From Comamonadaceae bacterium (GTDB lineage Bacteria; Pseudomonadota; Gammaproteobacteria; Burkholderiales; Burkholderiaceae_C): DNA of 32,000 nucleotides. The translations under genes and the position numbers were made by a program. Of the stretch, positions 3,019 to 31,107 are shown piece by piece. The stretch covers positions 82,424 to 114,423 of the forward strand of contig CANGNS010000002.1 in the NCBI GenBank assembly GCA_947455465.1. The letters run 5' to 3'. The notes under the pieces are model-generated. The model had not been told where the DNA came from, searched no databases, and saw nothing but the letters and a program-made list of their open reading frames with translations. The first letter of the stretch is position 1; every line of letters starts with the position of its first letter.

Positions 3019-3032
3019 TGGCGGAAGCTGTG
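3019..3032. repeat. att core copy distal to the tRNA (TGGCGGAAGCTGTG)
   Basis: Identical to the last 14 nt of the tRNA-Ser gene at 26264-26277. Similarity stops at both edges of the 14-mer. Confidence 0.75.
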
Positions 3033-3160: not shown

Positions 3161-3190
3161 AAGTGTATCTTTTAGTGTATCTTTTTTAGA
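3161..3190 (+). repeat. Tandem pair of GTGTATCTTT decamers, a possible integrase arm-type site, 17 nt upstream of the int start
   Basis: AAGTGTATCTTTTAGTGTATCTTTTTTAGA here matches AAGTGTATCTTTGGGTGTATCTTTTTAGA at 26186-26214, in the same orientation and just inside the two island ends. Confidence 0.4.
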
Positions 3191-3206: not shown

Positions 3207-4412
3207 ATGAGCAAACTCAATGCCCTCAAAATCAAGTCAATCAGCAAAATCGGTATGCATTCTGACGGTGGTGGATTGTACTTAAAGGTGCAATCATCAG
3301 CGAAAACTAGCTCAGTAAACAAAAGTTGGATTTTTCGATGGGGAGCAAAAGGCGCAAACACAATGGGGTTGGGGTCGCTCCGAGATGTGTCGCTGTCAGA
3401 GGCAAGGGGGTTAGCAAGCGAGTGTCACAGAATGGTTGCTCGTGGACTAAATCCCCGCGATGAACGTGAAAAACTTAAATCTGAACGGCTCGCAAAAGCA
3501 TCAAGCTCCATCACTTTCATGGCTGCGTCTGAGCAATACATTGAGACTCACCACCACTCTTGGAAAAATGTAAAGCATAAGCAGCAATGGGAGAAAACGC
3601 TTGAAACATATGCCCATCCAAAGATTGGAAATGTATCCTGTGCTGATGTGACAAAGGCGCAGGTGCTTTCAATCTTGAAGCCAATCTGGACTGAGAAGCA
3701 CGAGACTGCAACAAGATTGCGTGGTCGCATTGAATCAGTGCTGGATTGGGCAATAGCTAAAGGCTACAGAACAGAACCGAATCCCGCAGTTCTTAAAGGC
3801 AATTTGCAGCCGCTACTGCCTTACTTGCAAAAGCGTCAGCGCATCAAGCATCACAACGCCATGCACTATGACGATGTTCCCAAATTCTTCGCCACGATCA
3901 AAGACGATCCAACTATTTCGGCCCGTGCACTGGTGTTTTGCTTACTGACAGCGACAAGAACATCAGAAGCAGTGAATGCCACCTGGAAAGAAATTGACTT
4001 TGCGAAAAATACTTGGATCATTCCCAAAGAAAGAATGAAGCGCGGAATTGAGCACCGAGTGCCACTAGCATCTCAGGTGTGTGAGATGCTGGGGTTCATT
4101 AAGAGAGCCAACAATGACTTTGTTTTTTGCAGTGAGGTACGAAAAACTAAACCAATTTCAAACATGACAATGTTGCAATTTCTTCAACGTAAAGAAGGGC
4201 TGGAGAAGCTAACGGTTCATGGGTTTAGATCATCATTCAGAGACTGGGCTGCTGAAAAAGGAAACTTCGCAAGGGAAGTTTGTGAGCAGGCATTGGCTCA
4301 CGCATTGAAAGATCAGACGGAGGCAGCTTATCAACGGGCTGACTACTTTGAGAAGCGGACTGCGTTGATGCAGGAATGGGCAGACTACTGCTTTGGCGAA
4401 AAAAGTAGATGA
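3207..4412 (+). CDS. int: P4-type tyrosine integrase
   Basis: N-terminal arm-binding-type domain (LKIKSISKIGMHSDGGGLYLKV...WIFRW). Catalytic residues lie in LLTATRTSE (R), HGFRSSFRDWA (HxxR) and LAHAL...AAYQRAD (H, Y). Confidence 0.9.
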   Translation: MSKLNALKIKSISKIGMHSDGGGLYLKVQSSAKTSSVNKSWIFRWGAKGANTMGLGSLRDVSLSEARGLASECHRMVARGLNPRDEREKLKSERLAKASSSITFMAASEQYIETHHHSWKNVKHKQQWEKTLETYAHPKIGNVSCADVTKAQVLSILKPIWTEKHETATRLRGRIESVLDWAIAKGYRTEPNPAVLKGNLQPLLPYLQKRQRIKHHNAMHYDDVPKFFATIKDDPTISARALVFCLLTATRTSEAVNATWKEIDFAKNTWIIPKERMKRGIEHRVPLASQVCEMLGFIKRANNDFVFCSEVRKTKPISNMTMLQFLQRKEGLEKLTVHGFRSSFRDWAAEKGNFAREVCEQALAHALKDQTEAAYQRADYFEKRTALMQEWADYCFGEKSR

Positions 4413-4451: not shown

Positions 4452-4643
4452 CTAGCTCTTATTGATAAGAGCCAAGATTTCAGACTCACGCCAGCAAGTC
4501 GTCTTTGGTCCCAGTTTTATGGGCTGTGGAAATCTGCCTTCTGCCACGCCTTGCCACCAAGCCGCTTTTGAGATTGGCAGGTAGCCAAAAGAAGCTCCCT
4601 TCTTGTCACGTACGATATCTTTAACTCTTAATAACTTATCCAT
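4452..4643 (-). CDS. alpA: AlpA-family excisionase/transcriptional regulator
   Basis: 63 aa. LLRVKDIV...ISKAAWWQGVAEGRFPQPIKLGPKTTCWRESEI matches the AlpA/Xis MerR-like HTH signature. The gene is convergent with int. Confidence 0.85.
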   Translation of the reverse strand: MDKLLRVKDIVRDKKGASFGYLPISKAAWWQGVAEGRFPQPIKLGPKTTCWRESEILALINKS

Positions 4644-4702
4644 AAATAAAAACCCTTAAAAATTGCATCATTAAATTATTGAAATTTATACTTCAATTGA
4701 TT

Positions 4703-5218
4703 TTAAGAATTTAATGCCATTAAATTCTCCTCTTCAGTCTCACTACCAACTGACGGACCTGAAATTATTGAAAATCTCTGTGCCGCCCCATCGGAATGGA
4801 TGCGTATTTTTCCAAAACAAACATACCGAAGTTTCTCATTTGAGCAAAATGCAATTTCAATCCATCCAGAATTCAGAAAAGGGGAAATTGCATCTCTGAT
4901 ATCAGATAATGTTGCATCCTCCTCTTCTGATTCATCCACATTATCCCAATCCTCATTATTCATTTCAGAAGGCAATTTTTTATAATCCACATCATCAGTA
5001 TCGCAATAACAATGAAACATGGTGTACTTTGTGGGGGAAACTGTAGGATACTGAGAACAATAATCAGAACGAAAAATTGAATTCTCCTCATCGTCAAAAA
5101 TCCATTTGCCACCCGAAGTATCCCAAACAAAATTATTCAATGCATCTGCAAGCATTGAATAATTAATCTGACATTCGTCTGACTTTGTAAAAGTAAAAAC
5201 GCCATATGAATCAGCCAT
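4703..5218 (-). CDS. Hypothetical acidic protein
   Basis: 171-aa ORF with no competing frame and acidic runs (DNVDESEEEDATLSD, SETEEEN). No family recognised. Confidence 0.55.
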   Translation of the reverse strand: MADSYGVFTFTKSDECQINYSMLADALNNFVWDTSGGKWIFDDEENSIFRSDYCSQYPTVSPTKYTMFHCYCDTDDVDYKKLPSEMNNEDWDNVDESEEEDATLSDIRDAISPFLNSGWIEIAFCSNEKLRYVCFGKIRIHSDGAAQRFSIISGPSVGSETEEENLMALNS

Positions 5219-5556
5219 AAAATCACCTTTATATAAAGTAAACCTACCACTACCTCAATATTTGCCACACCATGCAACAAATTACTTTCAAATCTCAGCG
5301 TAGTCGCTGAAATTGAATCTATGAATGTCGCTTATGAAATCTGATAATTCATAAATCACATCTAGCGACAGATTGCTAAATGGATCGACAGATCAATCTC
5401 TGTCAATGCTAATCATCAATATACTGTCTTTATAATGAATATAATTCATGTTTAATTTCTTACTTGTCTTCATATTTGCTCCAAATTTAATTTAAAAATC
5501 TAAAATATCAAAAGAATCAATTATCTGATTCAGACTCTAGTTTATTGCAAAACACA

Positions 5557-5783
5557 TTTTTTGATAATCTGTTTTGTGTGGACCACTCAACTTGAATAAT
5601 CCACTTGAATCTAAATGATCTAATTGACTCAGGACTCAGTATATAGATAAAGGTGCTTTTTGATAATCTATTCTGCGTGGACCACTCATATTTAAATTAC
5701 CCATCGCGGGACAGATTTCCCTAAATGCAAATATTAATATACCAATTTTGAACTGATTTGATAATGAGTTTATAGTGGACCAA
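5557..5783 (+). promoter_or_regulatory. Three phased copies of TTGATAAT-N9-GTGGACCA(C/A), operator-like
   Basis: TTGATAAT lies at 5561, 5660 and 5758. GTGGACCAC lies at 5578 and 5677, and GTGGACCAA at 5775. The spacer is always 9 nt and copies are 99 and 98 bp apart. GTGGACCAC is a 9-bp palindrome. Confidence 0.5.
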
Positions 5784-6133
5784 GCATGTTTATAAGTAAT
5801 ACGCTTACAGATTAAGGATTACTATAAAAGGAGTTTTTCTGTTCCAAATTGAACAACTTCTATAGCTAAGGGGCGGCGGTCGAAGCTGGTGCACTCGCCA
5901 AAGTAGCCTAGCGAATGTGAATTGAATGCTTTGAGCGATCCAACTTGCGAGCTACTTGCAGCTCAGACAAGTACGAGCATAGGACGCAAAAGTTCAATGG
6001 GATAAGCTGACATCAGTCAGTGCTAACACAATTAGAGCGTTAGACTGAACAAAGTGCTTGACAGATCAGTGTAGTTGATTCACAGTTGAAGACGTGTGGA
6101 CCTTAATATTAATTATGAAAAATACTCATTGAT

Positions 6134-6553: not shown

Positions 6554-7279
6554 ATGGAATCGCAAATGAAAAATCCACCATGGTCACGTGACGAACACAT
6601 AGTTGCACTTGACTTTTACTTGAAGCATACGCCGCAGATTCCTGGCAAAGAATCAAAGGAAGTAATTCAGCTTAGCGAACTACTAAACAACATTGAAGGC
6701 AAGATTCAAGGCGATAGGACTGAGACTTATCGCAATCCTGCAGGTGTCTACATGAAGTTAATGAACTTCCGAAGGTTTGATCCAGGATACAAAGGCGTGG
6801 GTCTTGCAAACGGAAGTAAAGATGAACAGGTTGTTTGGGATCTGTACGCAAATAAGAAAGACGAACTTTCAAAGTTGGCTGTACAAATTGCACTTTTCAT
6901 GGCGTCAAATGAAGTCAAAGAAACGCTACCTGCTTTAGAGGCTGATGAGGAAGAAGGCAACGAAGGACAATTGCTTAGTAGAGTGCATCGCTATCGTGAG
7001 CGAGATCGGAAATTAGTCAAAAAGGCAAAAGATAAATTTGCGAATGAAAATGGTCGCATATTTTGTCAAGCATGTGGATTTGACTTTGAAACGAAATATG
7101 GTTCAAGAGGTGCAGATTTCATTGAATGTCACCACACTAAGCCCGTTTCTGAACTAGAGGCTAACGGGAAGACTAAAGTCGCTGATCTAGTCCTTCTTTG
7201 CTCAAATTGCCATCGCATTGTTCATAGACGCAAGCCATGGCTAACATTCGCTGAATTGAAGGCTCAGTTGCAACATTAG
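6554..7279 (+). CDS. HNH endonuclease of the predicted restriction endonuclease (COG3183-like) type
   Basis: The C-terminus reads RVHRYRERDRKLVKKAK...CQACGFDFETKYGSRGADFIECHHTKPVSEL...DLVLLCSNCHRIVH. The N-terminal domain reads PPWSRDEHIVALDFYLKH...YMKLMNFRRFDP...SKDEQVVWDLY, as usual for this family. Confidence 0.85.
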   Translation: MESQMKNPPWSRDEHIVALDFYLKHTPQIPGKESKEVIQLSELLNNIEGKIQGDRTETYRNPAGVYMKLMNFRRFDPGYKGVGLANGSKDEQVVWDLYANKKDELSKLAVQIALFMASNEVKETLPALEADEEEGNEGQLLSRVHRYRERDRKLVKKAKDKFANENGRIFCQACGFDFETKYGSRGADFIECHHTKPVSELEANGKTKVADLVLLCSNCHRIVHRRKPWLTFAELKAQLQH

Positions 7280-7291
7280 CCAATAAAAGAG

Positions 7292-8290
7292 TTGTTCGTG
7301 AAATACCAAGAACTTCAACACTTCATCGCATCTGAGATGCGAATGTCACAAATCTATCAGCCAATCATGTTGATTGAGTTGCTAAAGAACAATGGTAGTG
7401 CATCAGTCAATCAAATCGCTCAAGCAATCCTCAACAAAGACCCAACACAGATTGAGTACTTCTCACTTATAGTGAAGAACATGGTTGGCAAGGTTCTGAC
7501 GAAGAATCGTGGTATCACGGAAAAGAATAAAGACACATACACTTTGATTGGCAGTGATGGACTCACAACTGATCAAATCAAATTATTGATTGATCTTTGC
7601 CAACAAAAGATTGATGAGTTTGAACAAAAGCGCGGCGACAGCGTGTGGAGTCATCGTAGGCGTGGACACAGACCAATTAGTGGATCAGTCAGATATGAAG
7701 TTCTCAGCCGTGCGAAGGGACGTTGCGAACTGTGTGGCATTTCTAATGAAGAGAAGATGCTCGAAGTTGATCACATCTTTCCAAAGTCGCTTGGTGGCAA
7801 AGATGAACTGTCCAACTACCAAGCACTTTGCTATTCGTGCAATGCTGCGAAACGCAATACAGACGACACAGACTTTCGCTTGTTCAAGACCATGTACGAA
7901 CATCGTGAAGCGAATTGTTTGTTCTGCGACGTTCAGTCGAATGATAGATCACGTATCGTCAGCGAGAATAATTTAGCGTATGCGATGCGTGATGGATTTC
8001 CAGTCACGCACGGTCATACATTGTTCATCCCCAAGCGCCATGTGTTGGACTACTTTGGATTGACTCAGGCAGAGACAAACGCGGTGAATAGTCTCATACA
8101 GGAGCAGAAGAAATTATTGCAAGCTAGCGATAAGAGTATTGATGGGTTCAACATTGGCATGAACTGTGGCTCAAGTGCTGGGCAGACAGTCTTTCACTGC
8201 CATGTGCATCTAATCCCTAGACGCGCTGGCGATGTTGAGAATCCGCGTGGTGGCGTTAGACATGTGATCAGTGGTAAAGGCTATTACTGA
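7292..8290 (+). CDS. Three-domain fusion: N-terminal winged-helix-like region, HNH nuclease, C-terminal HIT (histidine triad) domain
   Basis: HNH motif: CELCGISNEEKMLEVDHIFPKSLGGKDELSNYQALCYSCNAAKRN. HIT motif: FPVTHGHTLFIPKRHV...GFNIGMNCGSSAGQTVFHCHVHLIPRRAGD. The start is uncertain: TTG at 7292, GTG at 7298 or ATG at 7337. Confidence 0.85.
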   Translation: MFVKYQELQHFIASEMRMSQIYQPIMLIELLKNNGSASVNQIAQAILNKDPTQIEYFSLIVKNMVGKVLTKNRGITEKNKDTYTLIGSDGLTTDQIKLLIDLCQQKIDEFEQKRGDSVWSHRRRGHRPISGSVRYEVLSRAKGRCELCGISNEEKMLEVDHIFPKSLGGKDELSNYQALCYSCNAAKRNTDDTDFRLFKTMYEHREANCLFCDVQSNDRSRIVSENNLAYAMRDGFPVTHGHTLFIPKRHVLDYFGLTQAETNAVNSLIQEQKKLLQASDKSIDGFNIGMNCGSSAGQTVFHCHVHLIPRRAGDVENPRGGVRHVISGKGYY

Positions 8291-8379
8291 AACCGCATGT
8301 GACTCCATGCCCAACGTTTTTTTAATTTTTATGATGTGCCACTCCATCAAGTCTTGATGAATAACATGACGAGGTTGCT

Positions 8380-8697
8380 ATGACTCAAATCTATGCACGA
8401 AAAAACTTTCGACTACCCGAAAAAGTTTCAAGCGACATCATCTCACAGTGGCAAGAATTGCTCCACGATGCAGCAATCGAAGGTGGAGGCTTTGATGATA
8501 TCGATGTTTTTTACTCTGAAAAAGAAAGAGTCATCGGGGTAAGCGTTCCGATTGAGAATGACCTTATGCTGACACTTGAAGCTGGCGCCATTCTTGGCTA
8601 CGTTACAGCTGAAGTGAACAGATCAGAGCTATATTCACTAGAGCGCTGGATGTCGGTTCATGACGAAAATGGTGATGTGATTGAGTCGACACTTTGA
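8380..8697 (+). CDS. Small acidic hypothetical protein
   Basis: 105 aa with a GAGG RBS upstream (acgaggttgctATG). By my count it has about 20 D/E against 8 K/R. No family recognised. Confidence 0.55.
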   Translation: MTQIYARKNFRLPEKVSSDIISQWQELLHDAAIEGGGFDDIDVFYSEKERVIGVSVPIENDLMLTLEAGAILGYVTAEVNRSELYSLERWMSVHDENGDVIESTL

Positions 8698-8720
8698 TTT
8701 CGGTAATAGGATGAAGTAAC

Positions 8721-8795
8721 GATGTTGAGACCCCACGTGGTGGCGTTAGGCATGTGATCAGTGGCAAGGGGTATTACGAAGTGAAAGACGAATGA
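8721..8795 (+). pseudogene. Orphan 3' fragment of a second HIT-domain gene
   Basis: 8721-8777 matches 8231-8287, the end of the HNH-HIT gene, at 50 of 57 nt. It encodes DVETPRGGVRHVISGKGYY against DVENPRGGVRHVISGKGYY. An in-frame TGA lies at 8712-8714 just upstream, so no intact ORF exists. Confidence 0.65.
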
Positions 8796-8857
8796 TCTTG
8801 GCTGACGATAATTCAAATTAACTATGTTGGGTAATGAAATTCAGAGAGATTCGATAA

Positions 8858-11671
8858 GTGACATCTAAGCACGGTCAGGCATCATTACTAATTTCACAAG
8901 GCGTCTTTGCCTCGGTGAAGACGTTTCGTGAATTTGAGCAGCGTGTGTCCAATTTATTTCAGACAAATACAAAGGCTCAAGGTGATGCGTTTGAAATTTT
9001 CGTTGAAGCCTATCTAGCAACTCAGCAAATACTGCAATGCCAAGAAACCTGGCTGGTAGGTGACATACCAGTTCACGTTCGGGAAAAACTTAATCTGCCA
9101 AACGACTCGAAAGGGATTGACGGCGTCTATAGGTCAATGTCCGATGACTTCGTTCCCTATCAAGTCAAGTTTCGTTCAAATAGACCCGCAATGGGATTCA
9201 ATGAAGTTGCGCCTTTTCTTGGCATCACAGAACGAGCAAGTGATCGACTATTGATCACAAACTGTGACACCATAGCAATCGATGTCAAGAATAGGACGGG
9301 AATACGATCACTGCGTGGTTTTGACTTCGATTCACTAAGCGAAGAGGACTTCTTAGTCATAGAGAACTGGCTCAATAAAAAGCCAGTTAAGCGAAAGCCA
9401 CTGACGCCAGATCCATATCAAGTCGAAGCGTTAGATGCCATTGCGAAGCATCTTGAACACAACGACAGAGGAACAGCGGTCATGGCTTGCGGCACTGGCA
9501 AGACACTCGTGGCATTGTGGGCAGTAGAACAAAGCAATGCAAAAACGATTCTTGTCTTAGTTCCCTCGCTGACTTTATTGCAGCAAACATTAGAGGAATG
9601 GAGTGTTCACAACTCGTGGGGTAAAGACTTTTCTTATCTTTGCGTCTGTAGCGATCCTTCAGTAAATCTAAAGAATGATGAGATTGAAATCGATCCCTCA
9701 GATGTACCCTTCAGAATCGATACAGACCCTGAGATAGTTAGACGCTACCTAGCCCAAGATAACGGCAAAACTAAGATAGTTTTTTCGACCTATCAAAGTA
9801 GCCAAGTTGTCAGCCAAGCGACCAAAGGTGTTTTTGAATTTGACATAGCTGTCTTCGACGAAGCACATAAAACTACGGGATCAGCTGAAGGTAGATTTGC
9901 TCTTGCCCTTAGCGATGAAAACGTAAAAATAAAGAAGCGTCTATTTCTAACCGCTACACCAAAGCATTACGACATTAGTAAACGAGATAAAGATGGTGAG
10001 TTCAAATTTGTCAGTATGGACGATGAATCGGTTTACGGCAAAAGGGCGCATACGCTTACCTTTGGTGATGCTGCAGCCAAAGGAATCATCTGTCCCTACA
10101 AGGTTGTGATTACTTTAATCAATAAGCAAAAAGTTGATGACTTTGCCTTGAAGAACGGAATCACTTTGGTCGAAGGTGACTCTGTCAAAGCCAAGTGGGT
10201 AGCGAGTCAAATCGCCGTTAGTAGTGCGATCAAGCACACAATCGCAACAAAAATTATTACCTTCCACAGTCGTGTAAAAACCGCTCGTGAGTTTGCTAGT
10301 GGTGAGGTCTACGGAATCAAGAAGTTTGTTGATGACTTTGAGGTTTTTCACGTTCACGGCAAGCAAAAAAGTAATGAACGTAAAGATACGATTTCGAAAT
10401 TTAGAAAATCTAGTCGCTCAATCATCACCAACGCTAAGTGTCTAACAGAAGGCGTTGATGTCCCAGCAGTGGATATGGTGGCTTTCGTTGACCCTCGTCA
10501 CAGCAAGATCGATATCGCTCAAGCTGTTGGTAGGGCAATGAGAAAACCAAGAGGCGGAAGTAAAACGGTCGGCTATATCGTTGTTCCCGTTTTTGCTGAA
10601 GATGCCACAGAGCAGTCACTTGAAAGAGCAATTAAGAGTGAGGAATTTAACGATGTTGCTCTAATTTTGAATTCATTATTGGAGCAAGATGAAGAGTTGG
10701 TCGAAATAGTCCGAGAGTTAAAGCAGGCGAAGGGTCGAGGCGAGGTATTTAATCCACAAAGATTCAAAGAGAAAATTGAGGTTATTGGACCGCTGATTAA
10801 ATTAGATGAGTTAACAAATAGTATTTACGTCGAAGTTGTCGATCGTTTAGGTGAGTCGTGGGATGAATCATATGGAAAGTTAAAGAAATTCAAAGACGAA
10901 AATGGTCATTGTCGTGTTCCACAATTGGATTCAGGCAAGAAATCAACATTAGGTCATTGGGTAGCTACACAGAGACGCGCCAAATTAACTTCAACATTGT
11001 CAGAAGACCGTATTAGCAGACTGGACAAACTGAACTTCGCTTGGGATTCATTCGATCAAAAGTGGGAAGAAGGATTCACTGCGCTAGTTGCATTCAAGAA
11101 ACGAAACGGTCATTGCATCGTCCCAAAAGGATATATAGAAAATGGAATTCAGCTCGGCTCTTGGGTTCGAACCAAACGAGCGAGCAGAAAAGATTTAACT
11201 TTGTCAGAAGAGAATATTTCTTCCCTAAATGCCATTGGGTTTATTTGGAAACCCAATGAGGATGCTTGGGAAGAAGGATTTAATGCTCTTGTTGTGTTCA
11301 AACTAAGAGAAGGACATTGCCTTGTCCCTAAGGATCATATTGAAAAAGGGTTCAATCTAGCAAGTTGGGTGCGCAATCAACGGTCTCATAAAACGAACTC
11401 GAAACTATCAGCTGAGAGGACTCGCCGTTTGAATGAAATGGGTTTCGTATGGAATCAGCTAGAGCAGAAGTGGGATGAGCACTTTCAAGCACTTTGCGTC
11501 TTTGAAAAGCAAAATGACCATTGCTTAGTACCAGTCAGTTATACGATAAACGGAATTAATCTTGGGTCTTGGGTACATACGCAAAGGCGTGAATACGGAA
11601 GCAAAAGATTGTCTACCGACCGACAAAATAAATTAGAGGTGTTGGGATTCACCTGGAAAATTAAAAATTGA
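8858..11671 (+). CDS. N-terminal PD-(D/E)xK-like nuclease, SF2 DEAH helicase (ResIII type) and four C-terminal helicase-associated (HA) repeats
   Basis: GTG start. Nuclease-like region: GDAFEIFVEAYL...KGIDGVY...YQVKF. Helicase motifs: I AVMACGTGKT, II VFDEAHKT, III LFLTATP, V/VI CLTEGVDVPAVDMVAF...AQAVGRAMR. Four HA repeats follow, of the form W(D/E)E.F..L..F....GHC.VP......LG.WV..QR. Confidence 0.9.
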   Translation: MTSKHGQASLLISQGVFASVKTFREFEQRVSNLFQTNTKAQGDAFEIFVEAYLATQQILQCQETWLVGDIPVHVREKLNLPNDSKGIDGVYRSMSDDFVPYQVKFRSNRPAMGFNEVAPFLGITERASDRLLITNCDTIAIDVKNRTGIRSLRGFDFDSLSEEDFLVIENWLNKKPVKRKPLTPDPYQVEALDAIAKHLEHNDRGTAVMACGTGKTLVALWAVEQSNAKTILVLVPSLTLLQQTLEEWSVHNSWGKDFSYLCVCSDPSVNLKNDEIEIDPSDVPFRIDTDPEIVRRYLAQDNGKTKIVFSTYQSSQVVSQATKGVFEFDIAVFDEAHKTTGSAEGRFALALSDENVKIKKRLFLTATPKHYDISKRDKDGEFKFVSMDDESVYGKRAHTLTFGDAAAKGIICPYKVVITLINKQKVDDFALKNGITLVEGDSVKAKWVASQIAVSSAIKHTIATKIITFHSRVKTAREFASGEVYGIKKFVDDFEVFHVHGKQKSNERKDTISKFRKSSRSIITNAKCLTEGVDVPAVDMVAFVDPRHSKIDIAQAVGRAMRKPRGGSKTVGYIVVPVFAEDATEQSLERAIKSEEFNDVALILNSLLEQDEELVEIVRELKQAKGRGEVFNPQRFKEKIEVIGPLIKLDELTNSIYVEVVDRLGESWDESYGKLKKFKDENGHCRVPQLDSGKKSTLGHWVATQRRAKLTSTLSEDRISRLDKLNFAWDSFDQKWEEGFTALVAFKKRNGHCIVPKGYIENGIQLGSWVRTKRASRKDLTLSEENISSLNAIGFIWKPNEDAWEEGFNALVVFKLREGHCLVPKDHIEKGFNLASWVRNQRSHKTNSKLSAERTRRLNEMGFVWNQLEQKWDEHFQALCVFEKQNDHCLVPVSYTINGINLGSWVHTQRREYGSKRLSTDRQNKLEVLGFTWKIKN
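10859..11668 (+). repeat. Four in-frame tandem coding repeats of exactly 204 nt (68 aa), the HA domains
   Basis: The Trp codon that opens each repeat sits at 10859, 11063, 11267 and 11471, a constant 204-nt period. Confidence 0.8.
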
Positions 11672-11790: not shown

Positions 11791-12444
11791 CTATATTGCT
11801 GTGGACGTACGAATCACTCTATCCAACCACTGATAGTATTTTCTGTTGTCTTGAGATATCTTGTATACCGTGCTAAGTCCATCAAGCAAAATATCGTCAT
11901 CGTATTCGACTGAGACTGAGTCAAGGATTTTCTTGGCATATGGCAGGAAAATTTGTGGTGCGCATGGTGGGACATGCAAAATCTCACATCTGCTTCTAAT
12001 TCCAGCATCAACTTCTTCAAGACGATTCGTGCTGAGAATCGTCAAGTCTGTGCCAAGTGTCTCGTCAAGTTCAATCTTCATCGCATCTGACATAGCAGCT
12101 TTACTCATCAAGAACTCTTCAATGATGATGTAGTTGAATTTCTGATCATTGATAGTGAAGTTCTTGTTGATCATCTTGTTTCTCCCATACAAGTCGTGAA
12201 TGTCAGATGCGTTCTTGAGATCGCTAGATCTGACTTTCTGAAATTGTGCTTCTTTCCGTTCTATGGCGTTTGGTAGCAGTCGCTGAATCAGTGACTTGCC
12301 TGTGCCACTTGTTCCATGCAACAGTAATGGCGCTTCAAGTTCTCCACTCGCATAGGCAAACACTACTTCACTGACTTCGCTGTTGGGATAGACGATTTCG
12401 TGAATAGATTTTGGCGAGTAATTTTTAATGGTTGAGATGATCAT
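11791..12444 (-). CDS. AAA+ ATPase, clamp-loader/RFC-like
   Basis: Walker A LLLHGTSGTGKS, Walker B YIIIEEF, sensor-1 ILSTN, and the SRC motif GIRSRCEIL characteristic of RFC/clamp-loader AAA+ proteins. Confidence 0.75.
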   Translation of the reverse strand: MIISTIKNYSPKSIHEIVYPNSEVSEVVFAYASGELEAPLLLHGTSGTGKSLIQRLLPNAIERKEAQFQKVRSSDLKNASDIHDLYGRNKMINKNFTINDQKFNYIIIEEFLMSKAAMSDAMKIELDETLGTDLTILSTNRLEEVDAGIRSRCEILHVPPCAPQIFLPYAKKILDSVSVEYDDDILLDGLSTVYKISQDNRKYYQWLDRVIRTSTAI

Positions 12445-12498
12445 TTTTTGTATTTGGTTAGATGAGTGAGCTGTTGTTGCAGCTCACTCGTTCAAGAC

Positions 12499-13488
12499 TT
12501 AGATTGCTTTCTCTCGTGTTGTCGAAATCTCTGCTTCAATACGATGCTTTCTAAAGAGAGTTGTTAGCGAGTCGGCGATTGCATACATGGCTTCGTCTGA
12601 TGGTTTTCTGTTGAAGCGAATGACGACTGAGTAGGGTTCGTCACTGTGTTCGTCTTCAGCAGCAGCTTCAACATTGAGACTTGCAGACTGTGAGACACGC
12701 TCAAGCATGACTGATGCAGCACTTGCTTCAAAATCTTGGCCAGACTTTTCTGGCGCAGTGTCAATCGATACAGTGCTGTCACTGACAGTCTCAGAAGCGC
12801 AGGAAACACTTGAATTTGCAGCGTCGTGAGCATCTGTGTGCTCGTCAGTCTGTTCATCGCTCGCAGCGTCTACAGACACTTCTGTGTCTTTTGAGACGCT
12901 AGGTAAAGCAGGCGCGGTGACGCTTGCTGAGGGCATCGTCGGTGTCGCTGGCGATGTGTCAGGTTTGCTTGATTTGTCAGACGAGTCATTGCCCCTGAGC
13001 AACTTGAGCTGAGCACCAGTCAGATGCGCCATGCTCTCGCCCATTGCGACCATCGCCATGAACACGTCAGGGGGAATCTGCGTGATCTCGTAGATGCTCG
13101 TCCAAGACGAGGGCAACAAGTTTGTGGCAGCGATCAAGTCGTCATAGCGTTCGCCAATCGCAAGAAACTTGCGAACTGTTGAGTCTTCAGACTTACGACC
13201 CACGTCTTTCAAGAAGCAGTCGTACTCAGACTTTGCGAGCGTGTTTTTCGCTTCAAAAACGATGCGACACATCTCGATTGTTGACTGAGCAGTCTTTACA
13301 GCGAATTTTGAATATTCGTTGTAAAGACGCTCACGTGCAGTTACGTGATGCTCGATGACTATTCCATCATCAGTTTCAAAGACACTTATTTGACCAAGAC
13401 CATTCTCTAACTCAGAAGTCGAAGAGTTATTGTCGATATCAATGTTTGTTCCATTTTGAACAGATTCATTTTGTGTGTATTCAATCAT
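12499..13488 (-). CDS. Hypothetical protein: helical N-terminal domain (DUF3102-like?) and an acidic Ser/Thr/Asp-rich C-terminal half
   Basis: CRIVFEAKNTLAKSEYDCFLKDVGRKSEDSTVRKFLAIGERYDDL resembles phage/plasmid DUF3102-type helical domains; this resemblance is weak. The C-terminal region is low complexity. Confidence 0.6.
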   Translation of the reverse strand: MIEYTQNESVQNGTNIDIDNNSSTSELENGLGQISVFETDDGIVIEHHVTARERLYNEYSKFAVKTAQSTIEMCRIVFEAKNTLAKSEYDCFLKDVGRKSEDSTVRKFLAIGERYDDLIAATNLLPSSWTSIYEITQIPPDVFMAMVAMGESMAHLTGAQLKLLRGNDSSDKSSKPDTSPATPTMPSASVTAPALPSVSKDTEVSVDAASDEQTDEHTDAHDAANSSVSCASETVSDSTVSIDTAPEKSGQDFEASAASVMLERVSQSASLNVEAAAEDEHSDEPYSVVIRFNRKPSDEAMYAIADSLTTLFRKHRIEAEISTTREKAI

Positions 13489-13496
13489 ATTAATCC

Positions 13497-14159
13497 TTAA
13501 GCCAAGCCAACTTCAGCACGAATTTTTTTGCTACTAGTCACGAAATGATCTAGTTCGTAACCACATTTCTGATGAATGTCCCCATTTGCATCAAAATAGA
13601 ACAACGAAGACCATGATCCATTAACTAACATTTCTAAATCGCAGTTGCGCAAGATGACATCATTCTCAGCAACCCAGAACTTATGTATGTTGTCACCAAC
13701 CAGAGTTGCTGACTCTTCTAAGGCAGCAATAATTGGTTTTTTTATGTTATTTTTTCTGTAATCACACATAGTCCATTTTTCAAATCGTGCATCACCTGCG
13801 TTGAACTTGAAACGATAAATTCCTCCAATATGTTTTGCAAGTTCATTCCAATCTACAGTAGGTTTAACCACGCCTGTATGATTTAGCATGTTTGTAGCAG
13901 GCATGCTTGAAATGAGTGGCATTGCTGTTACAGGATAATTATTTGATTCAGTTAACCAAACAAAATTCTTTCGCTGCATTAATTTCAACAGTCGCTCGTC
14001 TTTTAGAAATCCAGTGGAGTTCTCAAGAATGATTTTCCCACTCTCAATAATTTTGCAGATATGAATACCCTTTGTATAGTGATATACAGACTTGAATTTA
14101 GCGCAAGCCATTTTTCGATTTATACGAGCACGAAGTTGCATTTTCTTTGTAGTAGACAT
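13497..14159 (-). CDS. Hypothetical protein
   Basis: 220-aa ORF separated by 8 nt from the downstream gene of the same operon. No family recognised. Confidence 0.6.
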   Translation of the reverse strand: MSTTKKMQLRARINRKMACAKFKSVYHYTKGIHICKIIESGKIILENSTGFLKDERLLKLMQRKNFVWLTESNNYPVTAMPLISSMPATNMLNHTGVVKPTVDWNELAKHIGGIYRFKFNAGDARFEKWTMCDYRKNNIKKPIIAALEESATLVGDNIHKFWVAENDVILRNCDLEMLVNGSWSSLFYFDANGDIHQKCGYELDHFVTSSKKIRAEVGLA

Positions 14160-14224
14160 AAAAACCTCTATTAAAAATTAGATAAATTGATTATTTTTAG
14201 AATTCGATAGATCGTTAGATATGC

Positions 14225-14503
14225 TCATACGAACCCACAAGATTGAGCGCGATCAAACCATGCAATAGAGTTGCCACATTCATCGTTGTAGATGAAGTAG
14301 CGAGCATCTTCACAATAGCCAACATCCCAGTGCGTCACTGATGCAAATGTCAGCTCTTGCTCAAACTCCATCAAGTCACATTGCTTATTAGCGTTGTTTG
14401 AACCCACAAACAAGAACAAATCATTTTCTTGCTTGTGAATCTGCTTCTTACCAGTGCAGATGTCACAGTCGCAATAAGACTTCATCATGTTACTTTTACT
14501 CAT
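14225..14503 (-). CDS. Hypothetical Cys-rich small protein
   Basis: Track ORF 14225..14539 trimmed to the ATG at 14503, which follows GAAGGAAATT (RBS). It contains CDCDICTGKK. No family recognised. Confidence 0.5.
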   Translation of the reverse strand: MSKSNMMKSYCDCDICTGKKQIHKQENDLFLFVGSNNANKQCDLMEFEQELTFASVTHWDVGYCEDARYFIYNDECGNSIAWFDRAQSCGFV

Positions 14504-14590
14504 AATTTCCTTCTTTCTTTCAGTTAATATAAAACACAAATTTGAATCAACTATTTGATTCAGACTCTATTATATGCAATACTGCATATT

Positions 14591-14714
14591 TTGATAATTC
14601 AATATTCGTGGACCACGCATCTTGAATAATCAATTGAATCTAAATGATTTAATCGACTCAGTATGTATTATATAGGCTCGGTGATTTTTTATTAATCAAT
14701 AATATGTGGTCCAG
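14591..14714 (+). promoter_or_regulatory. Two phased copies of the TTGATAAT-N9-GTGGACCAC motif, second locus
   Basis: TTGATAAT at 14591 with GTGGACCAC at 14608. TTATTAAT at 14689 with GTGGTCCAG at 14706. The spacer is 9 nt in both and the copies are 98 bp apart. The site lies in the divergent intergenic region between the 14503 (-) and 14795 (+) starts. Confidence 0.45.
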
Positions 14715-14794
14715 CTAGTTTAAACTAGATGCCATTTTGATTAATATGTTTGTCCATGTAGAATCTCAAAATCGTTCCAAATTGAACAAAACCC

Positions 14795-15523
14795 ATGACC
14801 AAACCAAAGCACTCAAAGACACTTGCGTTAAACAAAGAGCCATTTCGACTCTGGTATGAGTTCTTGAAACGGGCTAAGGCGAAGGGAATGAAGGTGTCGA
14901 AGGACTACAGTGAGTGGGGAGACACGAGTGTGGGTTTTGACAAGTGGTGGCGAGAGCATGGCGCTAACCTGGTGCCAGTCGTTGCAAATGGCGTCGCTCT
15001 AGCTTCAGAAGAGACGCTCCATGATGACAACTACTACCTGTTTGCCATTCCAAAACATCTGTCAGCTCGCCAAACCCGTGTCGAAGCTGAACACTTGATG
15101 AAGAAATTGAAGGCTGAACATGGGGAGATCAAACTGAATACAAGATGGCGCTTGACTGAGGGCAAGAGCCTGAGATACGAAGCTATTCGCGCCTACCTGC
15201 ATGCCATTGACTGCAAAGACAAGTTGATCAAACAAGCAGTGGCTGCTGGTAAGTCAGCTGCTGATGTGAAGGTTGTGGATGTATTGGCAGCATTGCGTCT
15301 GTATTACATCAAGAAGCATGACAGATACAAGGGTAAAGGCGACCTGATGCCACAGCGACTGACACATGGTGATGGAGGATACGAGACCGATCCAAGCAAG
15401 ATCATCGTCAGCGACCATAGTGACCCAAAAGTTGCCACTCAGTCGATCAATGCTGTGCGTGACTATTTGAAGAGAGGTGAAGAGACGATGAAAGCTGTAG
15501 CTGAAGGCAGATTTCCTTCTTGA
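14795..15523 (+). CDS. Hypothetical protein
   Basis: 242-aa ORF directly downstream of the motif-bearing intergenic region. It ends in AVAEGRFPS, echoing the AlpA motif VAEGRFP. No family recognised. Confidence 0.65.
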   Translation: MTKPKHSKTLALNKEPFRLWYEFLKRAKAKGMKVSKDYSEWGDTSVGFDKWWREHGANLVPVVANGVALASEETLHDDNYYLFAIPKHLSARQTRVEAEHLMKKLKAEHGEIKLNTRWRLTEGKSLRYEAIRAYLHAIDCKDKLIKQAVAAGKSAADVKVVDVLAALRLYYIKKHDRYKGKGDLMPQRLTHGDGGYETDPSKIIVSDHSDPKVATQSINAVRDYLKRGEETMKAVAEGRFPS

Positions 15524-17154: not shown

Positions 17155-17754
17155 TCACAGCAAATTAACACTCGCTCTGAGCAGCTGGGGATTTGTATCC
17201 ACATATTTCATCGTGACAGCAGGGCCACTGTGCCCTGCCAATTCCATCAACACACGCACTGAAACGCCCTTGTTAGACAGAGCAGTCAAAAAACCACGCC
17301 GTGCGCTATGTGAACTCGCTCCAGCAATCCCAGCACTCTTGTACATGTAGTGAAAGTGCTGAGCGAGCGTAGACGCTGTGAAGCCCCTGTCTGGGTGCTT
17401 CTGACTGCTAAACAGTGCACGACTTGTGTCTGTGAATGTCACTGGGACTAGATCTTTGAGCTTGAAGCGCACTTGCAGGTAGTTCTTGATCTCTTCTTGC
17501 GCTTTGTCTGACAGAAAGACTGTGCGTCCCTTTGAGCCCTTCGTCATCTGTGCTGAAAGATAGATCTCTTCACGAATTTCACCCTCACTCGTGAGTACAT
17601 CAGCGAGACGAAGCGCAGCGAGTTCTCCAACTCGCATCCCAGTTAAATTTAAGACTGTGAACATTGCACGATTTCGTGCTGCGTGTTTCTTTGTTGCGAT
17701 CGACAACAATACTTTGCGAATTTCTCGCTCATTTAATACTTTAGCTTGCGGCAT
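17155..17754 (-). CDS. Short (199 aa) tyrosine recombinase, catalytic domain only
   Basis: TGMRVGELAALRLADV (R), KGSKGRTVFL (K), HSARRGFLT (HxxR), LAGHSGPAVTMKYV (H, Y). There is no N-terminal SAM-like or arm-binding domain. Confidence 0.85.
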   Translation of the reverse strand: MPQAKVLNEREIRKVLLSIATKKHAARNRAMFTVLNLTGMRVGELAALRLADVLTSEGEIREEIYLSAQMTKGSKGRTVFLSDKAQEEIKNYLQVRFKLKDLVPVTFTDTSRALFSSQKHPDRGFTASTLAQHFHYMYKSAGIAGASSHSARRGFLTALSNKGVSVRVLMELAGHSGPAVTMKYVDTNPQLLRASVNLL

Positions 17755-26005: not shown

Positions 26006-26187
26006 TGCCTGCTGATCAGTTTGAAATTCAATGGACTTGTGGGGCAGATTTAGTCCCAGAAATGAAAGCTACTTGTGCAACATGCGATGCGTCAAGATTC
26101 ATCGACATGGAAAGCTTGCCCAAACAACTTATCGGTGATAAATTGTTCTGTTTTGCCTATTTTTTCAGCAATAGACCAAGCGAATAA
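26005..26187 (+). CDS. Hypothetical small protein
   Basis: 60 aa. Its ATG overlaps the upstream stop (TGATG). Its stop abuts the terminal GTGTATCTTT repeats. Confidence 0.4.
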   Translation: MPADQFEIQWTCGADLVPEMKATCATCDASRFIDMESLPKQLIGDKLFCFAYFFSNRPSE

Positions 26188-26214
26188 GTGTATCTTTGGG
26201 TGTATCTTTTTAGA
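26186..26214 (+). repeat. Tandem pair of GTGTATCTTT decamers, a possible integrase arm-type site, tRNA-proximal end
   Basis: AAGTGTATCTTTGGGTGTATCTTTTTAGA is a direct copy of 3161-3190. It lies 50 nt inside the att core. Confidence 0.4.
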
Positions 26215-26263: not shown

Positions 26264-26277
26264 TGGCGGAAGCTGTG
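26264..26277. repeat. att core copy forming the 3' end of tRNA-Ser
   Basis: TGGCGGAAGCTGTG, identical to 3019-3032. Confidence 0.75.
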
Positions 26278-28514: not shown

Positions 28515-28925
28515 GCACGCACCGGGCCACGGGCCGTTGCACCAACTAACAGGGTTAAACCGCTTGTAGCTAAGCGCGGCGATGTGCTAAGGTATTCATT
28601 GTTTATTTGACAATAATTGCCAACCAAGCCCATGCCCGCCCTGAACGCCTCAGATCTAACGACTCCCCACCCTAAAAGCAGCTCGCTGCTGCATGACGCG
28701 CTGTACCAGCTAATGCGCGAAGGCCTGCTGGACCACGCCATCCGCTGCGAAGACGGCATGACGGTGCTGAGCGCCTGATGGGTTTGTCAGGGCGTGCGCC
28801 TGTTTGGCAACCCGGCCTCGGACCCGGCGCAGCAGAGGCCGGTGTTGTGGGCGCCGGGGGGGGTTAGGAATGATCAATAACCCTTCACAGTTCTTGTTTA
28901 GAAATATTGAGAGGAGATAAACCAA

Positions 28926-29483
28926 TTGGCCGTCACAAAACCAATACGCCCTAAATTGAGTGAGCGGGACCGAGTAAGACGAACCACAATATTGGCCTTG
29001 AGATGCTTAACCAATATTGCTTTTTATAGAAGCGGCGTGGGAAAACTAACCGATGCATCTCAGCAGGAATTCTATAGAGTTGCAAATTCGAACAATTTTG
29101 ATATCGCGGTATTGGAATGGTTTAAGGTTTTCGGAGAACGGAACGGCGAGCATCATTGGCGAAATATATTTTCCATTGACCCATTCAGCGAATATCTTTT
29201 ATCAAGCTTAAAAATTAGTCAAGGGGAATTTAGTAATTACATTAACGAAGTCGCCACTTACCGCAATACTTTTATCGCACACCTAGACGACTCATATATT
29301 ATGAATATACCAAACCTGGACACCATGCATCAATGCATGATTTTTTTACTCAATCAAATGCACAACAAAAACACATACAAGATGCATTTATCACCAAATC
29401 TTATTTCATGCCCCGAAAAAAATTACGATAGACTTTTGGAGTTAGGGGAGCAAATATATAATAATATTTTATATGCCAATTAA
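28926..29483 (+). CDS. Hypothetical protein with a HEPN-like RNxxxAH motif (Abi-type?)
   Basis: TTG start. The ORF is AT-rich. EVATYRNTFIAHLDD fits the Rx4-6H (RN...AH) motif of Abi-associated HEPN families. The family call is tentative. Confidence 0.5.
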   Translation: MAVTKPIRPKLSERDRVRRTTILALRCLTNIAFYRSGVGKLTDASQQEFYRVANSNNFDIAVLEWFKVFGERNGEHHWRNIFSIDPFSEYLLSSLKISQGEFSNYINEVATYRNTFIAHLDDSYIMNIPNLDTMHQCMIFLLNQMHNKNTYKMHLSPNLISCPEKNYDRLLELGEQIYNNILYAN

Positions 29484-29650
29484 ATATAACAAACCAATAT
29501 AGTGACCGCCATCTAAAGGGCACACAAATAAGATTAACAATCGAACACATAAAAAATCCCGCACTTTAATTTAATGTGACTTTTCGGACAATAAATGAGC
29601 ATGTCTGTCCGGAATCTCAATCAACATCCGCAATTAATTAACTTACCAAC

Positions 29651-30172
29651 ATGGATAAATATTTTCGCAATTTACTCCAAGAACTAAAGGGTGGCTTTTT
29701 CTCCGTATATCCGAATATTCAAGATATCATGAGAGTGCTATCGACCGATCGCACACCCTGGTTTGATATAACCTATGAAGACGGAAGCAAAAGATCTCTT
29801 GCCATAGTACACGCCTATGATGCTTATAAGATATATAAATACAAAAATCTGACCGATAGAATTAATTACCCAGATTTGCCAAATACATATGAAGATGCAG
29901 ACGTAGTTTTTGAAATACTAGCACCTGTTATATCGGCTTGGATTAATGAAGGCAAGTATCTATCATGCTCCAGGTTGTTGGCATCGGTATTTGTTCAGCT
30001 TGCGGAGCACGAAAATCTTGAAATTGATGCCATATCCGAAAATATCATATGGAGACTTCAAGAAGAATGCGAGGTTATCATCAATGAAAAAACCGAAAAT
30101 ATAATTCAAATCGCTATTCAGAATCTAAAAAATATCGGTTTTAAAGCTTCGGAAAATAATATTCAATTCTAA
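29651..30172 (+). CDS. Hypothetical protein
   Basis: 173-aa ORF in the AT-rich islet. No family recognised. Confidence 0.55.
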   Translation: MDKYFRNLLQELKGGFFSVYPNIQDIMRVLSTDRTPWFDITYEDGSKRSLAIVHAYDAYKIYKYKNLTDRINYPDLPNTYEDADVVFEILAPVISAWINEGKYLSCSRLLASVFVQLAEHENLEIDAISENIIWRLQEECEVIINEKTENIIQIAIQNLKNIGFKASENNIQF

Positions 30173-30181
30173 ACATTATTT

Positions 30182-31024: not shown

Positions 31025-31107
31025 CAGGGTGATATATTGGTCGATTAGAGTGACGGCTATTGCTAGCCGACTTATATACGGAATGTTATTCAGTTAATTA
31101 AATCGTT

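Follow-up and report, generated by a model that had tools for sequence, protein, structure and literature searches.

Probable leftward promoter and stem-loop modules flanking swappable gene cassettes in a tRNA-Ser island of a freshwater Comamonadaceae bacterium

Two intergenic regions in a 32,000-nucleotide stretch of DNA from a Comamonadaceae bacterium (assembly GCA_947455465.1, contig CANGNS010000002.1, positions 82,424 to 114,423; hereafter the window) carry copies of one repeated motif, three at locus 1 (from 5514) and two at locus 2 (from 14544). What does this repeat do? The initial annotation of the sequence read it as a phased bipartite operator, through which one island protein would control an island-wide regulon. 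Our analysis led to a different answer. The repeats are best described not as phased bipartite operators but as tandem modules, each made of a dyad, a promoter and a leader, that are specific to an uncharacterised island family. We consider it likely (probability of roughly 0.65) that the motif is the upstream half of a leftward composite module of about 98 bp, which joins a promoter to a stem-loop and flanks swappable gene cassettes in the manner of the PeSL (promoter-early stem-loop) elements of T4-type phages.

The motif itself stood up to re-examination. The sequence TTGATAAT-N9-GTGGACCA, with its constant spacer, occurs exactly at 5561-5585, 5660-5684, 5758-5782 and 14591-14615, and a fifth, degenerate copy with three mismatches (TTATTAAT...GTGGTCCA) lies at 14689-14713. 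At up to three mismatches, nine matches were obtained against 0.20 expected, and none of 100 shuffled sequences reached nine. The start-to-start spacings given earlier (99 and 98 bp at locus 1, 98 bp at locus 2) are correct, and the two loci are indeed paralogous control regions, with 72% column identity in an alignment in which the long shared blocks listed by the initial annotation are all present. Furthermore, a minus-strand match coincides with the first site at each of the two loci, which makes it a longer dyad, TTGATAAT-N9-GTGGACCAC-N9-AT(T/A)ATCAA. The palindrome GTGGWCCAC, proposed as the dimer-binding half-site, is conserved far beyond chance and does resemble the site of a dimeric protein, but it is not a perfect 9-mer palindrome in the third copy of locus 1 (GTGGACCAA) or the second copy of locus 2 (GTGGTCCAG). 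The island-wide regulon fared less well. TGGWCCA was found five times in the 23-kb island, against 1.6 expected, and all five lie inside the units, so that in the window the motif is confined to the two loci. As for the weaker copy reported at 6096, the sequence GTGGACCTT is indeed present at 6096-6104, but the TTGAT-like partner closest to it, TTGATTCA (6076-6083), is 12 nt off rather than 9; the motif scan at three mismatches did not recover this site, which we treat as a probable chance match or relic.

The strand and the nature of the motif had to be corrected. TTGATAAT, previously regarded as an operator half-site, is the complement of TTATCA, the -35 hexamer of a leftward promoter, which is followed by an A-tract and has its -10 at a fixed 17 bp. 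Read 5' to 3' on the minus strand, a module consists of the dyad, the -35, a 17-bp spacer, the -10, a AGAGTCTGAAT block directly after the -10 and around the predicted start, the leader hairpin, a Shine-Dalgarno (SD) sequence and the start codon. The consensus of 45 distinct units is aaTTcAAgaTGc.TGGtCCA.(10).ATTATCAAAAAAt...tttt.tgA.AtAcTa.agtcTGAaT. A promoter consensus scan retrieved, on the minus strand, TTATCA-17-TATATT (5764..5736) and TTATCA-17-TATACT (5666..5638) at locus 1, as well as TTATCA-17-TATAAT (14597..14569) and TTAATA-17-TATAAT (14695..14667) at locus 2, the latter two each matching at 10/12 positions. This geometry of the hexamers is kept in all three modules of locus 1 and in both of locus 2, of which locus 1 module 3 and locus 2 module 2 are the most degenerate. 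The features of the two loci, with the predicted divergent promoter beside locus 2, are the following.

5514..5600, minus strand: locus 1 module 1, the nearest to the gene, with -10 TAAACT (5544..5539) and -35 TTATCA (5567..5562)
5531..5514, minus strand: leader hairpin GAATCAGATAATTGATTC of locus 1 module 1
5538..5527, minus strand: conserved AGAGTCTGAATC of locus 1 module 1, with the predicted start near 5530-5532
5586..5578, minus strand: dyad GTGGTCCAC of locus 1 module 1, with upstream arm TTCAAGTTGA
5613..5699, minus strand: locus 1 module 2, with -10 TATACT (5643..5638), -35 TTATCA (5666..5661) and dyad GTGGTCCAC (5685..5677)
5711..5797, minus strand: locus 1 module 3, the most degenerate, with -10 TATATT (5741..5736) preceded by TG, and -35 TTATCA (5764..5759)
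5783..5775, minus strand: dyad TTGGTCCAC of locus 1 module 3, a module without the family-type leader hairpin
14544..14630, minus strand: locus 2 module 1, the nearest to the gene, with -10 TATAAT (14574..14569), -35 TTATCA (14597..14592) and leader hairpin (14561..14544)
14616..14608, minus strand: dyad GTGGTCCAC of locus 2 module 1, with arms TTCAAGATGC and TATTGAA
14642..14728, minus strand: locus 2 module 2, distal and degenerate, with -10 TATAAT (14672..14667), -35 TTAATA (14695..14690) and dyad CTGGACCAC (14714..14706)
14737..14794, plus strand: predicted rightward promoter and leader of the gene for a 242-aa protein, with -35 TTGATT (14737-14742), a 16-bp spacer and -10 TAGAAT (14759-14764)

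In module 1 of locus 1, a start codon with an AGGAG-type SD follows 65 nt past the -10, and in module 1 of locus 2 the start codon of a 92-aa gene lies at the same distance.

To see how the unit behaves elsewhere, we turned to related islands. The 242-aa protein has homologues in 71 clusters (53-93% identity, none annotated), and a profile built from 20 of these clusters recovered 31 related loci: two from genomes, Limnohabitans sp. Rim28 (locus L001) and a Comamonadaceae metagenome-assembled genome, and 29 from freshwater metagenomes. Their canonical gene order opens with a plus-strand integrase gene. On the minus strand come alpA, an AAA+ gene, a 330-aa gene and a number of small genes, followed by the control region and the plus-strand 242-aa gene, beyond which come a small recombinase gene (minus strand) and an H-NS-like gene (plus strand). 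Conservation of the motif in related islands, on which the initial annotation had staked its reading, was borne out in almost all 31 loci. With the 8-mer ATTATCAA alone as anchor, 72 sites were found in the related loci, which total 228.6 kb. TGGNCCA stands at a fixed offset without mismatch in 53 of them and with one mismatch in three, giving 56 family copies. The -10 takes the form nAtAnT (TATACT in 13 copies, GATACT in 12, AATAAT in seven and AAAAAT in six, plus TATAAT and others), often with the TG of an extended -10 one base 5'. Its A2 and T6 stand at the fixed place in 52/56 copies, compared with 5/15 of the ATTATCAA sites that lack the dyad. A sigma-70-type promoter should present such conserved bases, a hexamer spacing of 16-18 bp and, downstream in the same orientation, a gene with a ribosome-binding site. 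In gene-proximal modules, a start codon with an SD before it comes 43-96 nt past the -10, and at least 10 unrelated genes are preceded by a module in this arrangement. In L001, L009, L012, L013 and L016 the unit repeats every 425-754 bp, each copy sitting between consecutive leftward genes just 5' of the start of the next one. Where modules lie between leftward genes in L001, L009, L013 and L016, there is no plus-strand gene. Indeed, every -10-bearing module, in the 31 related loci as in the window, points away from the 242-aa gene. Host sigma-70 RNA polymerase would thus be expected to start leftward at each module, and the tandem copies (three at locus 1, two at locus 2) would act as stacked promoters.

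The period of the repeats has a simple explanation in this architecture. From the upstream arm (approximately -66) to the end of the leader hairpin (approximately +32), a module spans about 98 bp, so the 98/99-bp period in tandem arrays is the length of abutting modules. The same period recurs in L002 (99, 99 and 99 bp), L020 (98 bp), L023 (99 bp) and L028 (98 and 99 bp). The helical phasing that had been read into it was rejected, since 99 bp corresponds to about 9.4 turns, which is not a whole number.

The dyad is centred near -50, 15 bp from the -35, and is flanked by TTCAAgaTG and, in some copies, by the mirror arm cTTGAA. Two patterns of conservation are superimposed on it. Positions +-1 to +-3 (TGG/CCA) are invariant, with TGGWCCA exact in 53/56 copies (centre base T in 36, A in 17), and positions +-4 to +-6 co-vary (at +-4, G:C in 19, U:A in eight and U:G in four of 41). 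Both flank variants occur within one island, which argues for selection on self-complementarity rather than for co-evolution with a protein. Where a module follows a gene, the median stem-loop energy is -15.8 kcal/mol, with 9.2/12 symmetric flank positions (e.g., ATTCAAGAAGCGTGGTCCACGCTTCTTGAAT in L016), compared with about -7.6 kcal/mol and about 6/12 positions in tandem and first modules (5.9/12 in tandem ones); the strongest dyad stem-loop reaches -20.8 kcal/mol. In a terminator scan, two dyads of L001 were terminator-like, and none in the window or in L016 passed. The greater strength of the extended stem-loop after a gene suggests a terminator role there. The core is also kept in modules that have neither an upstream gene nor an extended stem, and the asymmetric upstream arm AAGATG is conserved as well, from which we infer two layers: a site for a dimeric protein and, where needed, a terminator. 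A palindrome conserved beyond structural need, at a fixed distance from a promoter, is the expected form of an operator and suggests that a protein binds the core. The invariant core would be bound by a putative dimeric regulator with a footprint reaching the -35 hexamer; after a gene, the dyad would extend into a stem-loop of 13-15 bp that ends the upstream transcript.

A second inverted repeat starts at about the predicted +1. Its ends are conserved (GAAT(C/T)...(G/A)ATTC) and its interior is variable. Among 12 long-type leaders, 95.8% of cells are paired and compensatory changes are found in 5/10 pairs, against 32-46% paired in slid controls. A T-run follows the hairpin directly in about 60% of copies. 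Such a leader hairpin could protect the 5' end of the mRNA or attenuate transcription. GANTC sites (GAATC, GATTC, GACTC) cluster in the leader hairpins, within 5514-5640 and 14544-14665; over the whole island they are not enriched (111 observed, 99.5 expected).

Relatives differ by whole units of gene plus module. The segment 9179-9728 of L001, which holds a gene of the GNAT type, is missing from L016 and L013, and the single module of L016 aligns to both modules that flank the gene in L001; the segment 7810-8368 of L001 is likewise missing from L013. In L017 and L021, the first modules are near-identical as far as the final base of the leader hairpin, after which the genes are unrelated. A GNAT-type acetyltransferase is a recurring cassette gene (L001 9183-9725, L009 4274-4831), and no family match was obtained for most other cassette proteins (MAKFAM..., MGQAKIR..., MKKIDIN...). 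Recombination between modules that are alike over about 100 bp would add, delete or swap the small genes that they flank, and relatives would come to differ by whole cassettes.

A known system behaves similarly. The PeSL of T4-type phages, composite promoter-terminator cassettes that are conserved and about 100 bp long, unite a sigma-70-like promoter with a stem-loop; they flank ORFans and mediate indels through recombination (Arbiol et al. 2010, PMC2839356; Comeau et al. 2014, PMC4122927). The modules share with them an intergenic element of about 100 bp that joins a sigma-70-type promoter and a stem-loop to the SD and start of the next gene. Also shared are its repetition before many small genes without known function in a variable region and the position of indel or replacement ends inside the elements. 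Indeed, the modules are a promoter and stem-loop repeat of that length, and the indels that they bound surround mostly unannotated small genes. The differences are several. The modules lie in a chromosomal tRNA-Ser island with a P4-type integrase rather than in a T4-type phage region; their stem-loop is 5' of the -35, not between or over the promoter hexamers; they have the invariant palindromic core TGGWCCA and a second, co-varying leader hairpin; their hexamers are further from consensus, and empty modules are stacked beside a divergent gene. PeSL have no sequence similarity to the modules, whose functions are predicted from sequence. By its features, then, the module is an analogue of PeSL and not a member of that group. 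Compared with the divergent master-repressor control regions of phage satellites and prophages, such as stl/str of the staphylococcal pathogenicity islands (SaPI) and cI/cro of lambda with its multiple operators, the islands share a regulator-like gene divergent from an operon that leads toward excision-type functions (alpA in the canonical relatives) and repeated intergenic dyad sites. In contrast to those switches, the module sites are separated by about 99 bp instead of adjoining each other, the dyad is 5' of the -35, each cassette gene in the operon is preceded by a further copy of the site, and the 242-aa protein has no recognisable helix-turn-helix and no relative of known function.

Several observations weigh against this interpretation. 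The -35 matches consensus at only 4/6 positions, and the total of promoter-like hits in AT-rich regions is not above that of shuffled sequences, so that the case for a promoter rests on position and conservation. A look for RNA-seq runs covering the window turned up none that was usable, and one metatranscriptome gave only short, low-depth contigs on L001-type genes, with no start information. The leader hairpins are weak, at -5 to -12 kcal/mol, and rich in AT; the window modules have only weak dyad hairpins. The strong after-gene stem-loops are mostly at orthologous positions in L001, L013 and L016, and hence represent few independent events. A dyad near -50 is not at a classical activator position, and a core 5' of the -35 is unusual for a simple repressor. 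Finally, no DNA-binding domain was recognisable in the 242-aa protein, the leading candidate for a regulator, by library, sequence or fold search.

How do other explanations compare? Phased bipartite operators, in which TTGATAAT and GTGGWCCAC are half-sites for one island protein governing an island-wide regulon that includes the rightward genes, would account for a motif that is real, significant and conserved, for the longer palindrome at the first site of each locus, and for the single symmetric site that lies between a leftward gene and the 242-aa gene in L009, L011 and L014. We regard this as unlikely, though it deserves to be kept in mind. TTGATAAT falls exactly at the -35 place of a leftward promoter with a conserved -10 17 bp away, internal modules of the relatives have no plus-strand gene to control, TGGWCCA is found nowhere else in the island, and the repeat distance equals the module length without being a whole number of helical turns. 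Moreover, dyad and 242-aa promoter are not equally far apart in all relatives (23 nt in the window, 19 nt in L013). A contrasting possibility is that the dyad is a mere terminator or attenuator stem-loop of a mobile promoter cassette, with no dedicated regulator and a core kept by ancestry or gene conversion. The co-varying flanks within single islands, the much stronger stem-loops where a gene precedes the module, the two L001 dyads that pass the terminator scan and the terminator function of PeSL stem-loops (PMC2839356) all agree with it. It appears rather improbable to us, since the core is exact in 53/56 copies while its flanks vary freely across lineages whose genes share only 65-70% DNA identity, tandem modules without an upstream gene keep the core and lose the extended stem, a terminator needs no fixed loop sequence, and the arm AAGATG is conserved in many units without a mirror partner. 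The leader hairpin invites a further scenario of antitermination or attenuation, in which hairpin and T-run would halt most transcripts about 30 nt in and a factor loaded at the promoter, similar to Q or to Pseudomonas aeruginosa AlpA, would permit read-through. The covariation of the hairpin and the T-run directly after many copies (e.g., AATTCTTTTTTAAAT in L021, L001 and L023) are consistent with this, and in Q and AlpA systems a DNA site embedded in the promoter does go together with a terminator further downstream (PMC9371919). In those systems, however, the DNA site lies after the -35 and before the -10, not at -50 (PMC9371919), and P. aeruginosa AlpA, with DNA-contact residues to position 142, is far longer than the 63-aa AlpA-family protein of the island. 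Also, the initially transcribed region contains no -10-like pause element, the hairpins are rich in AT, those of the window all fail the terminator scan, about 40% of copies, including locus 2 module 1, have no T-run, and a 5'-terminal hairpin fits mRNA stabilisation equally well. Antitermination is therefore quite improbable.

Two other proposals concern DNA transactions rather than transcription. The modules could be sites for a 199-aa tyrosine recombinase of the size of FimB/FimE, in an integron-, shufflon- or invertible-promoter-like system where the 7-bp TGGWCCA is the overlap and its central A/T sets polarity. A recombinase of about 200 aa with an Xer/invertase-like domain is indeed encoded near modules in the window and in several relatives, 12-bp inverted arms surround the 7-bp core in a manner resembling a tyrosine-recombinase core site (L016: ATTCAAGAAGCG TGGTCCA CGCTTCTTGAAT), both centre bases exist (36 TGGTCCA, 17 TGGACCA), the cassette indels have modules at their borders, and tandem modules are joined exactly end to end. 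We find this very unlikely all the same. The arm sequences are not conserved between modules and hence provide no fixed recombinase binding site, no -10-bearing module in the opposite orientation exists in the 31 related loci or the window, and assemblies of four metagenomes (Logan contigs) show a single arrangement with no variants, although contigs cannot reveal minor forms. The recombinase gene is 2.4 kb off, its product lacks an N-terminal DNA-binding domain, and 100 bp of homology suffices for RecA-type recombination. Like integron arrays, the islands have small genes on one strand, imperfect palindromes with co-varying stems, cassette-wise variation and a nearby tyrosine recombinase. Integron hallmarks are nevertheless absent: each module brings a promoter, which most integron cassettes lack, module ends show no R''/R' core sites (RYYYAAC / GTTRRRY), an attI/Pc arrangement is missing, and the recombinase, about 200 aa long, is without the IntI-specific insertion and scores 40 against a 265-bit cut-off for integron integrases. 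A bolder version, also very doubtful, would make the TGGWCCA dyad and its co-varying arms the core site of the recombinase, so that cassettes are captured with a terminator, a regulated promoter and a stabilising leader at each site (an 'integron with built-in promoters') and stacked empty modules are cassettes without an open reading frame (ORF). The fimS switches of FimB/FimE resemble the islands in the recombinase of about 200 aa, in promoter segments of about 100 bp between short palindromic 9-mers, and in the opposite centre bases of the flanking dyads at locus 2; they differ in that an inverted form was seen in no relative, the recombinase is not adjacent, and its invertase-family match is 35 against a 221-bit cut-off. 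Lastly, the tandem 98-bp repeats adjoin genes weakly similar to replication clamp loaders, and might be the iterons of an origin of replication that the clamp-loader-like AAA+ ATPase and a 329-aa protein serve. This is extremely unlikely: in relatives the unit occurs singly before each of several genes, every unit has the geometry of promoter, leader and SD, usual iterons are about 20 bp and helically phased, and the core has no recognisable gene for an initiator, a primase or a helicase of any known type of replicon.

Smaller-scale readings of the sub-motifs were also tried and rejected. GGWCC as a restriction-modification target is neither avoided nor enriched in the island (13 observed, 11.5 expected). 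For a sigma-54 promoter (GG-N10-GC; TGGCAC-N5-TTGC), the GG of TGGACC is followed 12 nt on by TTGA, with no GC dinucleotide, and the pattern is absent in the third unit. A plus-strand sigma-70 promoter with TTGATA as -35 has no -10 at 16-18 bp (CACTCA, CACGCA). Fur-box, ARG-box, IHF and LexA sites match only in fragments, and a small ORF from the conserved ATG of the upstream arm was discarded, the ATG being missing in several units.

If the dyad and promoter modules are regulated, which protein would bind them? A repressor is somewhat more likely than an activator. By its position only, always adjacent and divergent, the 242-aa protein is the leading candidate. It matched no family in Pfam, NCBIfam, PHROG or PADLOC and no PDB sequence; its AlphaFold2 model is all-alpha (mean predicted local distance difference test score, pLDDT, of 68) and matched no PDB fold. 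Other possible binders are the AlpA-family, H-NS-like and 329-aa proteins, or a host factor. Among the candidates, only the AlpA-family and H-NS-like proteins have a recognisable DNA-binding domain, and the DUF3102-like label formerly given to the 329-aa protein has to be dropped, as no Pfam DUF3102 match appeared even at E<=5. In the canonical relatives, the leftward transcript would run through the 330-aa gene, the AAA+ gene and alpA. Because such a transcript would reach alpA, we favour modules that act as a switch gating island functions.

Locus 2 is the canonical divergent control region of this family, and its description as a divergent promoter region between the leftward AAA+-containing operon and the 242-aa gene was right. 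A second dyad, GTTC-N6-GAAC (GTTCCAAATTGAAC), is found at 14774-14787, at about +3..+17 of the rightward promoter, and is distinct from the TGGWCCA dyad. It precedes the ATG (14795), which has no SD, by 7 nt; in relatives it lies 9-13 nt after the -10, and 4-7 nt separate it from the start codon (ATG) of the 242-aa gene. Both the -10 (TAGAAT/TAAGAT) and GTTC-N6-GAAC are kept in nearly all relatives, with the variant GTTCAAAATGGAAC in L009, L012 and L030. From this placement, the dyad looks like an operator or leader element of the 242-aa promoter. Locus 1 has had a different history, as its surroundings indicate.

5841..5854, plus strand: GTTCCAAATTGAAC dyad of locus 1, a copy of the leader- or operator-like site 5' of the 242-aa gene
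5862..5975, plus strand: decayed 5' remnant of a second gene of the 242-aa family, with ATG changed to ATA and three in-frame stops
5288..5473, minus strand: first leftward gene of locus 1, with an in-frame TGA at codon 27 (5395..5393)
4452..5218, minus strand: leftward genes after locus 1, for a 171-aa protein and the 63-aa AlpA-family protein

The remnant was recognised by tblastn (E 0.002, 36% identity over 45 aa including stops), and a DNA alignment of L020 (56-344) to the window (5657-5943) spans it. In L005, L007 and L028, the first leftward ORF is intact (61 aa) and locus-1-type sequence stands directly 5' of an intact 242-aa gene. Since a decayed remnant of the 242-aa family follows the GTTCCAAATTGAAC dyad, locus 1 is a duplicated and partly dead control region. 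Its modules now face the interrupted small ORF, the 171-aa gene and alpA, and its relic rightward face lies 5' of restriction-like cargo.

The element that houses both loci is a low-G+C island (about 40%) of about 23 kb, roughly 3033-26263, embedded in host DNA of about 62% G+C. A 14-bp direct repeat, TGGCGGAAGCTGTG, stands at both ends (3019-3032 and 26264-26277), the right copy being the 3' end of tRNA-Ser(tga); the island is integrated at the tRNA-Ser of a freshwater Comamonadaceae-type host. The integrase gene lies at the island end distant from the tRNA. Paired GTGTATCTTT repeats just within both ends (3162-3190 and 26187-26213) may be arm-type integrase sites. The main genes of the island are listed below.

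3207-4412, plus strand: P4-type integrase, by library match
4452-4643, minus strand: 63-aa AlpA-family protein, downstream of locus 1
6554-11671, plus strand: restriction-like cargo between locus 1 and the AAA+ gene, with HNH, an HNH-HIT fusion and a helicase
11791..14503, minus strand: leftward operon from locus 2, for 92-aa, 220-aa and 329-aa proteins and a clamp-loader-like AAA+ ATPase
14795..15523, plus strand: 242-aa orphan protein, divergent from the modules
17155-17754, minus strand: small tyrosine recombinase of 199 aa with an Xer/invertase-like catalytic domain, far under all family cut-offs

The cargo helicase has 937 aa and four HA domains, and PADLOC matched the cargo to type IV, type IIG and PbeA-like components. 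The similarity of the AAA+ ATPase to replication clamp loaders is weak. Beyond the 242-aa gene are encoded a 395-aa nuclease-like protein, an H-NS-like protein, the 199-aa tyrosine recombinase (minus strand) and a DUF6641 protein. In several relatives (e.g., L001 11014-11622), as in the window, a tyrosine recombinase of about 200 aa is encoded near the module region. A second low-G+C islet (28900-31050, 36-39% G+C), with ORFs of 185, 173 and 280 aa, lies amid host genes. At gathering thresholds, Rfam returned only the tRNA and no match within either locus, and BLAST of locus 1 against plasmid records gave no match. When viral contigs were scanned for exact matches to TGGWCCA-N10-ATTATCAAA, 113 stretches came back, and in all except one of them the pattern occurs only once. 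By our estimate from the pattern and the size of the collection, chance would give about as many, and the island family is therefore not represented in those contigs.

If the reading of these repeats as composite promoter and stem-loop modules is correct, the strategy of T4-type phages, in which about 100 bp serve as terminator, promoter and recombination handle, would also operate in chromosomal islands of abundant freshwater bacteria, and newly swapped-in genes would arrive ready for expression. It would define a compact, highly conserved regulatory element, in which a TGGWCCA dyad and a promoter keep a constant distance, paired with the orphan 242-aa family, and would give a handle on how such islands are switched on and on the role of the orphan proteins. 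The variable cassettes would become candidate defence, anti-defence or toxin-immunity genes, accessory roles of the defence type being plausible because the same island carries restriction-like cargo.

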